A stretch of DNA of 64,000 nucleotides from Escherichia coli (GTDB taxonomy: Bacteria > Pseudomonadota > Gammaproteobacteria > Enterobacterales > Enterobacteriaceae). The notes beneath the pieces are model-generated. The model saw nothing but the letters and a program-made list of their open reading frames with translations. It was not told the DNA's origin and searched no databases. The translations under genes were made by a program, and so were the position numbers. The stretch is taken from NCBI RefSeq assembly GCF_003334255.1, contig NZ_QOWU01000006.1; one strand, 5' to 3'. Below, one piece after another: positions 39,990-40,831 of this stretch. Positions within the stretch are counted from its first letter, which is position 1; every line of letters begins with the position of its first letter.

Positions 39990-40355
39990 TCGACCGAACC
40001 TTTGGCAACCGGATAGCGGGGGCTTTCACCCCCGCTGCGGTTTCTTACTGTTTACACTGCAAGAACGCCGCAAATTCTGACCACATGATGTTAAGTCTGA
40101 ACTCACACGGCGAACGGTGTATCATCCAGACTGTCAACAACATGGTTAAGCATAAAATGCTCACGATGATCGTTTTTTGCGGCATAGCGCTTGCTCCTTT
40201 TTCAAAGAGGCGCTAACCTTCCACTTGCGAAGGTTAGATGGTTAGGGCCTCGGGTTAAACAAATGTTTGACTCGGGGCCTTTTCACATCCGGCCTTCAGG
40301 TAATCCTTCCAGCCGTCAGCCGAAAGGCACCCACGTGTAATCTACTGATTTCCCT
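39990..40355. repeat. Tandem repeat unit 1 (hok-like toxin locus)
   Basis: ~366 bp, ~95% identical to unit 2, with indels clustered in a predicted stem-loop. Confidence 0.85.
40045..40185 (-). CDS. Hok-family type I toxin (46 aa), copy 1
   Basis: Translates MPQKTIIVSILCLTMLLTVWMIHRSPCEFRLNIMWSEFAAFLQCKQ; single TM helix, conserved Cys, resembles HokA (MPQK...); AAGGAG upstream. Confidence 0.75.
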   Translation of the reverse strand: MPQKTIIVSILCLTMLLTVWMIHRSPCEFRLNIMWSEFAAFLQCKQ

Positions 40356-40463
40356 TTGTGCGCGCAATGCTCAGTGTTGAAACTGTTTAGGGGGAGGGCG
40401 GCAAAAAAGCCCGCATATTGCGGGCAAATACGTCTGTAATCCAATGGAGAAAGGGGTGCCATA

Positions 40464-40831
40464 TCGACTGAACCCGACAACCGGATAGCGGGGGCTTTCA
40501 CCCCCGCTGCGGTTTCTTACTGTTTACACTGCAAGAACGCCGCAAATTCTGACCACATGATGTTAAGTCTGAACTCACACGGCGAACGGTGTATCATCCA
40601 GATGGTCAACAACATGGTTAAGCATAAAATGCTCACGATGATCGTTTTTTGCGGCATAGCGCTTGACTCCTTTTACAGGGAGGCGCTAACCTTCCACTTG
40701 TCTAGGGTAGGAATGGTTAGGGCCTCGGGTTAAACAATATGTTTGACTCGGGGCCTTTTCACATCCGGCCTTCAGGTAATCCTTCCAGCCGTCAGCCGAA
40801 AGGCACCCGCGCGTAATGTACTGGTTTTAAA
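40464..40831. repeat. Tandem repeat unit 2 (hok-like toxin locus), abutting prophage ogr
   Basis: Second copy ~474 bp downstream of the first; its right end overlaps the last ~13 codons of ogr. Confidence 0.85.
40517..40657 (-). CDS. Hok-family type I toxin (46 aa), copy 2
   Basis: Same ORF in repeat unit 2 with one substitution (V19I). Confidence 0.75.
   Translation of the reverse strand: MPQKTIIVSILCLTMLLTIWMIHRSPCEFRLNIMWSEFAAFLQCKQ

Follow-up and report, generated by a model that had tools for sequence, protein, structure and literature searches.

The window, a 64,000-nucleotide stretch of Escherichia coli DNA, contains two hok-type cassettes arranged head-to-tail between positions 39920 and 40843, with a period of 472–476 bp. 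We consider it likely, at a probability of roughly 80%, that they are paralogous type I toxin–antitoxin (TA) cassettes of the hok/sok type, borne as accessory cargo (a "moron") by a P2-like prophage that is integrated at the serS terminator, and lying at its ogr-proximal end. The encoded peptides belong to the Hok/Gef family, the toxin reading frame is under purifying selection, and the RNA structure is conserved among relatives. Of 5426 complete E. coli genomes, 710 (~13%) contain such relatives.

Hok peptides of a divergent clade

Each cassette carries one intact Hok-family ORF on the minus strand, as a preliminary description of this DNA had proposed. Unit 1 encodes a 46-amino-acid peptide (MPQKTIIVSILCLTMLLTVWMIHRSPCEFRLNIMWSEFAAFLQCKQ) at 40045–40185, preceded by the Shine–Dalgarno sequence AAGGAG at 40199–40194. 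The 46-amino-acid peptide of unit 2 (40517–40657; Shine–Dalgarno at 40672–40667) differs from it at a single residue, V19I. Similarity to Hok/Gef proteins is significant: the Pfam model HOK_GEF (PF01848) matches residues 9–44 with E=2.3e-6, and PHROG 251, "MokW-like host killing", matches over the full length with E=4.7e-19. The NCBIfam HokA equivalog model NF007290 (2e-9, 37.4 bits) and the Hok subfamily model NF007279 (27.3 bits) score below their cutoffs of 89 and 73, respectively. The peptides belong to a divergent clade that is neither HokA nor the curated Hok subfamily. The unit 1 peptide is near-identical to RefSeq WP_001135720.1, a "Hok/Gef family protein" of strain SCU-106 (...CKP for ...CKQ), and the unit 2 peptide to WP_001135719.1 of the same strain (one residue, ...LLAIW... 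for ...LLTIW...).

A published sequence logo defines the positions conserved in >80% of Hok peptides (preprint 10.1101/2025.08.07.668861). Read from the sequence rather than through an alignment to that logo, M1, C12, T14, C27, E28, and E37 account for six of the seven positions in the expected register, and the seventh, L30, is a proline in this clade. The spacing of C12, T14, C27, E28, and E37 equals that of C16, T18, C31, E32, and E41 in the logo, and the register extends to the late cysteine, C44. The peptides thus combine a length near 50 amino acids and an N-terminal hydrophobic helix with the conserved C..T, (L)CE, and E residues of the Hok/Gef family.

A structured mRNA with paired ends

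Predicted sigma-70 promoters precede both units on the minus strand. The unit 1 promoter (40339–40367), read from the sequence, consists of TTGCGC, a 17-nt spacer, and TAGATT; that of unit 2 (40815–40843; TTGCGG, 17-nt spacer, TACATT) lies inside the 3' end of an ogr-like coding sequence. Family members share the −10 pattern TAnATT. Each promoter is followed by a predicted structured mRNA of ~355 nt. In unit 1, this core spans 39979–40332 on the minus strand, from a predicted start at G 40332 to the fold-back partner CGAAAGUAGCACCC (39992–39979), and in unit 2, it spans 40454–40808, from G 40808 to CGAUAUGGCACCC (40466–40454). The unit 1 core has a minimum free energy (MFE) of −159.1 kcal/mol (z = −9.96 against shuffles), and the unit 2 core one of −151.4 kcal/mol. 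Despite their differing 3' partners, both MFE folds pair the 5' end with the 3' end, bearing out the fold-back inhibition (fbi) pairing that had been suggested as a check.

Comparison with 62 distinct relatives supports this fold. In these relatives, 98% of cells pair, against 34–45% when the partners are slid, the consensus structure being derived from the very sequences used for pair counting. The covariation score is 0.220 versus 0.162 in shuffles, none of 500 of which reaches 0.220. The fold-back helices are 97–100% paired, with one-sided G–C/G–U changes and one compensatory pair. The leader also resembles the Rfam model RF01794, whose matches span the full model in both units (unit 1, 40175–40332, 48.3 bits, E=5e-9; unit 2, 40646–40808, 44.7 bits, E=4e-8) yet stay under the gathering score of 59.

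A GC hairpin begins ~10 nt past the hok stop codon on the minus strand of each unit (40016–40035 and 40488–40507), and within the family, pairs 312/337, 313/336, and 320/330 of its stem have undergone compensatory changes. These hairpins were earlier taken for the mRNA 3' end; the conserved transcript instead runs on to the element complementary to the 5' end and then to an intrinsic terminator. The terminator scan places the latter on the minus strand at 39920–39953 in unit 1, with an 11-bp stem followed by a T-run, and at 40402–40425 in unit 2.

A predicted Sok-like antisense RNA

Sok-like antisense RNAs are predicted on the plus strand in the two regions where the preliminary description had pointed to them (40230–40320 and 40700–40790). 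In unit 1 (40191–40283), the promoter would comprise TTGCTC (40191–40196), a 17-nt spacer, and TAACCT (40214–40219), and the predicted RNA of ~57 nt (roughly 40227–40283) has a free 5' tail of 14 nt ahead of a ~17-bp hairpin and a U-run. In unit 2 (40663–40759), TTGACT (40663–40668), an 18-nt spacer, and TAACCT (40687–40692) precede a predicted RNA of ~60 nt, roughly 40700–40759. The resulting layout (TTGnnn, 17–18 nt, TAACCT) overlaps the hok Shine–Dalgarno sequence. In R1, the Sok promoter likewise overlaps the hok Shine–Dalgarno sequence. The predicted Sok promoter, whose −10 hexamer TAACCT is weak, was missed by a consensus promoter scan. Both hexamers are also conserved in 25 extra units that were retrieved with an unrelated 5'-end pattern. 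The plus-strand candidate that the scan returned instead, inside the hok coding sequence (CTGTCA, 16 nt, TAAAAT; 40131–40158 and 40603–40630), was rejected as the Sok promoter because the Stx-phage clade does not conserve its hexamers and two occurrences against 1.3 expected are within chance.

The antisense hairpin is strand-asymmetric and accompanies these conserved promoter hexamers. When each sequence is folded on both strands separately, the plus-strand Sok segment folds much better than its complement in all 37 distinct relatives (mean −26.1 versus −14.4 kcal/mol), and the stem is kept beneath 18 different hairpin tops. A joint fold of the 37 putative Sok RNAs (RNAalifold, MAFFT alignment) gives a poor consensus, since indels misalign the hairpin top.

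Divergence between the tandem copies

The two units share in-register direct repeats of 197 nt (97%), 100 nt (91%), 44 nt, and 25 nt. Over the 358 columns of the transcript core, they differ by 16 mismatches and seven gap columns, corresponding to 95.4% identity without gaps and 93.6% with gaps. The ~95% identity given earlier therefore holds for the core, while the unit length of ~365 bp does not, as each unit has its own, diverged terminator and the period is ~475 bp. Eight of the 23 differing columns fall inside one 25-column window (binomial probability 1e-4 for a single window, 0.04 corrected for all windows), which is the stem-loop singled out in the preliminary description. The clustering reported there is thus real, with a second cluster of eight differences in the 3' fold-back partner and four further differences in the Shine–Dalgarno-bearing hairpin. 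The 5' arm of the copy 2 stem-loop is weakened, at odds with the statement that both stem arms are retained. Selection on the mRNA fold, proposed as the cause of the cluster, is only part of the picture, as the cluster coincides with the predicted Sok 5' tail and its target. Overall, the copies diverge mainly in the Sok 5' tail and Sok target and in the 3' fold-back partner. The segment is a hypervariable module throughout the family and appears to be shuffled between cassettes by recombination. Unit 1 resembles the attachment-proximal unit of a different phage (93.9%) more than it does the adjacent unit 2 (91.5%), and the duplication is therefore old.

This pattern raises the possibility, to which we give appreciable weight but less than even odds, that the two copies are not redundant but functionally distinct, mutually orthogonal TA pairs, with diversifying selection acting on the Sok recognition elements. 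The predicted tail–target duplexes have energies of −32 to −38 kcal/mol for cognate partners and −13.7 and −15.9 kcal/mol between units. Within the close clade, pairwise diversity reaches 0.35 in the Sok tail and 0.40 in the hairpin top; the values for third codon positions (0.11) and the 5' leader (0.05) are lower. Tails differ within every tandem array inspected, and the age of the duplication also favours this reading. However, a cis-antisense pair stays complementary under any mutation, so the segment may be only weakly constrained, and third codon positions are a poor neutral yardstick, since RNA structure constrains them. In addition, the hairpin, which makes up ~40 nt of each Sok, is almost the same in both units and could still allow cross-pairing.

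Absence of a mok leader ORF

No ATG, GTG, or TTG ORF in any frame runs through the hok start in unit 1, in unit 2, or in 46 of 65 relatives. The other 19 have a leader ORF that is inconsistent in frame and position, and the same test recovered mokW in 933W as a control. In five divergent relatives, an upstream ATG (−103) opens a 79-codon ORF, which reads ATG-TGA in the window; we rejected it as an ancestral mok, given that its position is not equivalent to that in R1 and that it is absent from most members. In R1, translation of mok as far as the hok Shine–Dalgarno sequence is mandatory (PMC9841398). Given this requirement, the lack of mok means that the cassettes could be translationally silent. 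It also means that hok translation, where it occurs, must be mok-independent.

It is improbable that the cassettes are decaying, silent relics that lost mok and persist only owing to their short length and to hitch-hiking on the prophage. Such decay would account for the missing leader ORF and for the upstream ATG-TGA, and it agrees with the pairing of the Shine–Dalgarno sequence and start codon in every predicted fold, the 3'-truncated form included. Against decay, a pN/pS of 0.22–0.65 relative to other members and an intact hok ORF in 59 of the 66 family units point to purifying selection on the toxin. Despite 70–100% sequence divergence, the relatives maintain the promoter hexamers, the fold-back pairing, and the hairpin of the antisense RNA, and the strong Shine–Dalgarno sequence (AAGGAG, 8 nt ahead of the hok ATG) is retained. 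A related coding sequence, 72_1589, was in a published toxicity panel and is absent from its list of non-toxic members.

Maintained cassettes, the reading preferred here, would call for another form of control over toxin translation. Perhaps this mok-less control works through a three-codon relic, GUG-GAA-GGU-UAG (GUG at 40224–40222), or through an upstream start–stop, AUG-UGA (40288–40283), that is occluded by Sok. A more inclusive proposal joins the observations into a mok-independent hok/sok clade in which the single-stranded parts of Sok, its 5' tail and hairpin loop, may act as interchangeable specificity elements shaped by diversifying selection, with the tandem copies of one prophage being orthogonal. 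This joint reading is tentative, and we hold it to be somewhat less likely than orthogonality taken by itself.

Location within a P2-like prophage

The prophage attachment core, CCTGCGGGCGGTTTTT (39834–39849, plus strand), is the serS terminator and forms the left boundary of the P2-like prophage. It was found by aligning the K-12 serS–dmsA spacer with both prophage junctions, and it has one match in the window with none expected by chance. Identity with the K-12 chromosome ends at this core, before the cassettes. At the far junction, next to the integrase and dmsA, the integrase-side junction restores K-12 sequence. Since the core directly follows serS, both cassettes lie inside the prophage, and not between serS and the prophage as first described. 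A comparison with K-12, in which no hok gene is known next to serS, is for this reason beside the point.

The cassette pair sits between the attachment site and ogr, the prophage gene for an ogr/Delta-like late-gene activator (40792–41094, minus strand). The start of unit 2, including its promoter, overlaps the 3' end of this gene. An identical ogr-hok-hok block is found near gyrA, an unrelated chromosomal site, in strain STEC2018-607, and an ogr-like gene lies within 600 bp in 91 of 175 viral loci with the 5' motif of the cassette. Thus, the cassettes are enclosed by the attachment cores and move with the phage, as befits a moron of a P2-like prophage. A scan of genome contigs with the 15-mer GAAGGTTAGCGCCTC returned, among the matches listed, only chance matches in unrelated phyla.

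That the units are instead a chromosomal hok locus native to the serS–dmsA spacer of this E. coli lineage, alongside which the prophage integrated, is very hard to sustain: serS does adjoin them directly and several genomes have serS followed by two or three hok units and no adjacent ogr, but K-12 identity stops ahead of the cassettes, the cassettes move with ogr to other loci, the examined genome without an adjacent ogr (strain 154) has another phage with a tail-fibre assembly gene in the flank, and 5421 of the 5426 genomes match a short serS-side sequence only, with the full block in just 12.

Proposed mechanism and significance

In the proposed mechanism, each cassette would use a sigma-70 promoter of its own to produce a stable mRNA of ~410 nt, the 5' end of which would pair with the complementary element near the 3' end (fold-back inhibition). 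With the Shine–Dalgarno sequence and start codon buried in conserved helices, the full-length RNA would be translationally inert. The opposite strand would yield a short, presumably unstable antisense RNA (~57–60 nt) in which a free 5' tail precedes a strong terminator hairpin. This Sok-like RNA is predicted to pair with the mRNA leader 30–100 nt upstream of hok and to block toxin production from the activated, 3'-processed mRNA, most likely through cleavage of the duplex by RNase III. Loss of the antisense RNA would then permit synthesis of the 46-amino-acid Hok peptide and depolarisation of the inner membrane. In this scheme, transcription, 3' processing, RNase III action, the toxicity of both peptides, and the benefit to the phage are inferred. 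For the phage, the likely payoff would be at least one of prophage retention, exclusion of other phages, and help with lysis on induction.

The finding itself is largely ordinary: the Hok/Gef annotation is already in RefSeq, the family is in PHROG 251, and prophage enrichment and islets of hok genes have been reported. Only two points merit following up, the lack of mok and the hypervariability of the Sok elements. A large, conserved hok clade with fold-back and a predicted Sok-like RNA but no mok questions the generality of the R1 translational-coupling model. Variability in the Sok tail and loop exceeds that of third codon positions several-fold, tandem copies never share the same tail and loop, and the natural cassette pair makes antitoxin specificity and cross-talk directly testable. 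In Stx phages, the second hok cassette by lom is distinct from hokW-sokW and may need to be considered in hokW deletion studies.

Comparison with known systems

The cassettes resemble hok/mok/sok of R1 in several respects. Both encode a Hok/Gef membrane peptide with a CxT...CE...E pattern and a long structured mRNA with 5'–3' fold-back and a GC hairpin past the stop codon, followed by a terminator. As in R1, the predicted cis-antisense RNA of ~60 nt combines a free 5' tail with a single hairpin, its −35 element overlapping the hok Shine–Dalgarno sequence, and the leader resembles RF01794, though below the gathering threshold. Unlike R1, the window cassettes lack the mok leader ORF, encode a peptide of 46 rather than 52 amino acids, and are a prophage-borne tandem pair, whereas R1 is plasmid-borne.

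The hokW-mokW-sokW locus of Stx phages 933W and Sp5 is also a prophage-encoded hok-family type I TA system of E. coli. Toxin and antitoxin activity of hokW-sokW have been demonstrated experimentally, and the system aids phage release after induction (Takada et al. 2021, PMC8621323). The locus in the window is not this published system: HokW has 51 amino acids and is 28% identical to the window peptides, the hokW locus includes an in-frame mokW, annotated with 70 aa, as well as a sokW of 71 nt, and the hokW primer sequences map elsewhere in 933W, where hokW-sokW lies at 58.5 kb and not next to lom.

The closest relative also comes from Stx phages: it is their second hok cassette, next to lom (933W 45475–45870), with 77–85% DNA identity over the whole unit and a 46-amino-acid peptide 58.7% identical to the window peptide. 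It shares the leader, Sok layout, and fold-back pairing with the window cassettes and likewise lacks mok. It differs in being a single copy, in residing in a lambdoid phage, and in its Sok tail and loop alleles. The cassette is unannotated in the 933W record AF125520.1 and corresponds to "MokW-like host killing" in TL-2011c and to peptide 72_1589, whose coding sequence is in the toxicity panel and not among the three listed as non-toxic (preprint 10.1101/2025.08.07.668861). A search of the literature on the lom-adjacent locus found no useful transcript evidence.

Finally, the 2026 preprint (10.1101/2025.08.07.668861) describes hok "islets", defined as two to six hok genes within 2 kb; these tandem arrays arise by local duplication. 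Islets hold 13.5% of Escherichia chromosomal hok genes, and prophages show a roughly four-fold enrichment of hok. That analysis covers coding sequences only; mok, Sok, and divergence within arrays fall outside it. As a tandem array, the pair in the window is like these islets.

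Repeat structure of the two hok units

Downstream of serS, which ends at 39805 in this E. coli window, lie two head-to-tail repeats. Each has an intact minus-strand ORF of 46 aa, at 40045-40185 in unit 1, nearer serS, and at 40517-40657 in unit 2, nearer ogr. A repeat search recovers in-register blocks of 197 nt (97%), 100 nt (91%), 44 nt, and 25 nt at a spacing of 472-476 bp. Aligned over a 358-column transcript core, the units show 16 mismatches and 7 gap columns (95.4% identity without gaps, 93.6% with them), and their peptides differ only by V19I. The preliminary description of near-identical tandem units with intact ORFs and ~95% identity is borne out, but its unit size of ~365 bp is too small: each unit also includes an intrinsic terminator, diverged between the two (39953-39920 and 40425-40402, minus strand), making the true period ~475 bp. 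The GC hairpin that had been taken for the mRNA 3' end begins ~10 nt past the stop codon, and conserved RNA continues ~25-45 nt beyond it in both units.

Location within a P2-like prophage

An alignment set the K-12 serS-dmsA spacer against the window and the integrase-side junction of SCU-106, a near-identical lysogen. Identity to the chromosome ends at the serS terminator; both prophage junctions have the 16-nt core CCTGCGGGCG[G/C]TTTTT. The window copy of this attachment core (39834-39849) precedes both units, which therefore do not lie between serS and the prophage, as first proposed. All of the DNA from the core onward, by way of ogr, gene D, and the genes for tail, head, and replication as far as the integrase, belongs to a P2-like prophage of ~37 kb. 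The integration site is itself the serS intrinsic terminator; the phage brings a near-identical 3' arm (GGGCGG for GGGCGC), and a working serS terminator is probably kept in the lysogen.

The same ogr-hok-hok block recurs in strain STEC2018-607, where it adjoins gyrA and starts at the identical base. Among 175 viral contigs with the 5' motif of the cassette, 91 have an ogr-like gene at most 600 bp away and 8 hold two cassette copies. One, two, or three hok copies stand next to serS depending on the strain, the three in strain 154 being part of a different phage.

The neighboring ogr/Delta-like CDS (40792-41094, minus, 100 aa) matches the PHROG 603 profile over residues 1-61 only. Its final ~17 codons cross the unit 2 hok promoter and the first 17 nt of the mRNA, with the stop codon falling within the 5' end of that mRNA; insertion of the cassette may have created this C-terminal extension as a side effect. 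Between the lysis and tail genes, a 688-aa ORF (53813-55879, minus), whose counterpart in the near-identical SCU-106 prophage carries a DUF6645 annotation, could be an accessory or defence cargo gene. Past the window end, the early region of the SCU-106 prophage (locus L005) encodes a ParE-family toxin-like protein (33119-33346) and an adjoining DNA adenine methylase (32148-33122), suggesting that the prophage may hold more than one toxin module.

Peptide family and closest relatives

Membership in the Hok family is confirmed by matches of the 46-aa peptide to Pfam HOK_GEF (E=2.3e-6) and PHROG 251 'MokW-like host killing' (4.7e-19). The NCBIfam HokA profile also matches at 2e-9, but its 37 bits fall short of the cutoff, 89. 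The C..T / CE / E positions conserved in the published Hok logo keep their register here, and RefSeq labels the near-identical SCU-106 ORFs 'Hok/Gef family protein'. Identity is ~50% to most plasmid-borne Hok/Gef matches and only 28% to HokW of Stx phage 933W.

The closest relatives are the second hok cassettes of Stx phages, located between lom and L0129; DNA identity across the full unit is 77-85%. This cassette occupies 45475-45870 of the 933W record (L008 2501-2896), where it lacks annotation, and L003 1501-1896 in TL-2011c, where RefSeq calls it 'MokW-like host killing'. It is distinct from the published hokW-mokW-sokW, which lies at 58.5 kb in 933W. Relatives of at least 80% identity occur in 710 of 5426 complete E. 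coli genomes, and all 40 sampled matches carry a Hok/Gef annotation. The ORF is intact in 59 of 66 family units, with pN/pS of 0.22-0.65 against relatives.

Promoter and fold of the hok mRNA

Both units have a minus-strand hok promoter: TTGCGC, 17 nt, TAGATT with a predicted start at G 40332 in unit 1, and TTGCGG, 17 nt, TACATT with a predicted start at G 40808 in unit 2. Full-length matches to Rfam RF01794 begin exactly at these two nucleotides, scoring 48.3 and 44.7 bits, under the gathering score of 59. Although named 'sok', RF01794 here matches the hok coding strand and its consensus extends to an AUG, which suggests that the model describes the hok mRNA leader.

At full length the RNA is predicted to be very strongly structured, with -159 kcal/mol (z = -9.96). 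The 5'-3' pairing looked for in this transcript is predicted in both units, where the 5' GGGUGCCUUUCGGCUGA pairs with a 3' element; the 3' fold-back elements differ, being CGAAAGUAGCACCC in unit 1 and CGAUAUGGCACCC in unit 2. From viral contigs, 66 related units were gathered, and 62 distinct mRNAs were aligned. Their consensus structure keeps the fold-back helices, a hairpin containing the Shine-Dalgarno sequence, a long-range helix between the start-codon region and the invariant UUUGCGGCG, and the GC hairpin with three compensatory pairs. With the consensus derived from the same sequences that were counted, pairing holds in 98% of alignment cells versus 34-45% with partners slid, and the covariation score of 0.220 (0.162 in shuffles) is reached by none of 500 shuffles.

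A predicted Sok-like antitoxin RNA

Predicted plus-strand Sok promoters (TTGCTC, 17 nt, TAACCT in unit 1; TTGACT, 18 nt, TAACCT in unit 2) overlap the hok Shine-Dalgarno sequence, the same layout as the R1 sok promoter. The predicted RNA is ~57-60 nt long, with a free 14-16-nt tail and a ~17-bp hairpin followed by UUUU. In all 37 distinct relatives, the plus-strand segment folds far better than its complement (mean -26.1 versus -14.4 kcal/mol), because G-U pairs turn into A-C mismatches on the opposite strand, and the stem is kept under 18 different hairpin tops. The TAACCT and TTG hexamers are conserved in 25 further units found by an unrelated 5'-end pattern, so their invariance is no artefact of the first search pattern. 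Strand-asymmetric folding and conserved hexamers together argue that the Sok-like RNA is real. It stands as a prediction: the -10 hexamer TAACCT is weak, and a consensus promoter scan did not call the promoter.

A second promoter-like site (CTGTCA, 16 nt, TAAAAT; 40131-40158 and 40603-40630, plus) lies antisense within the hok CDS. Its product would be a ~125-nt antisense RNA over the hok Shine-Dalgarno sequence and start codon. The Stx-phage clade does not conserve this site, whose count is within chance.

Absence of mok

A search of all frames for ORFs that begin with ATG, GTG, or TTG and run across the hok start codon finds none in the two units and none in 46 of 65 relatives; the ORFs in the other 19 are consistent in neither frame nor position. 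Applied to 933W as a control, the search does find mokW. In R1, translation of mok as far as the hok Shine-Dalgarno sequence is mandatory (PMC9841398), so this clade either translates hok without mok or is silent. Silence would sit poorly with the conserved ORF, the strong Shine-Dalgarno sequence that is kept, and the maintained regulatory RNA features, and on these sequence grounds mok-independent translation is favored.

Two short elements may be remnants of mok, neither conserved family-wide. A three-codon mini-ORF, GUG-GAA-GGU-UAG (40224-40213 and 40697-40686, minus), lies within the Sok-target hairpin, in its loop and 3' arm, roughly at the position of the mok start in R1 and without a preceding Shine-Dalgarno sequence. 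Most of the 25 extra units also have GTG-NNN-GGT-TAG, but the Stx-phage clade has GTA; the mini-ORF may be a truncated mok relic. An AUG-UGA start-stop after GAAGG (40288-40283 and 40764-40759, minus), at the 3' edge of the Sok-complementary region, is another possible relic; its ATG begins a 79-codon ORF overlapping hok in five divergent relatives.

Divergence between the copies

The differences between the units had been described as one stem-loop cluster suggesting selection on the RNA fold. The cluster holds (8 of 23 differences, at ~40213-40240), but it is not the only one, with 8 more in the 3' terminal element, and its site is that of the predicted Sok 5' tail and target. The 19 units of the close clade have a pairwise diversity of 0.35 for the tail and 0.40 for the Sok hairpin top, whereas third codon positions give 0.11 and the 5' leader 0.05. 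Tails differ within every tandem array inspected. Computed tail-target duplexes reach -32 to -38 kcal/mol for cognate pairs and only -14 to -16 between units 1 and 2.

This pattern fits selection for distinct antitoxin specificities. Much of it is equally accounted for by a cis-antisense segment being under relaxed constraint, so we give orthogonality of the pairs a probability of about one in three. In the same alignment, unit 1 is 93.9% identical to the attachment-proximal unit of another phage versus 91.5% to its own neighbor, and the first unit of strain 154 has a tail of the unit 2 type and a 3' end of the unit 1 type, indicating that the duplication is old and that modules recombine.

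Relation to known hok loci

As leads, the absent mok and the hypervariability of the Sok elements are modest and computational only. A 2026 preprint catalogued 1264 Hok peptides, found a four-fold hok enrichment in prophages, and attributed 13.5% of Escherichia chromosomal hok genes to 'islets' of 2-6 genes arising by local duplication; its toxicity panel included 72_1589, a 58.7%-identical relative (10.1101/2025.08.07.668861). Set beside that catalogue, the pair is genuine but ordinary, belonging to a known family that databases already annotate.
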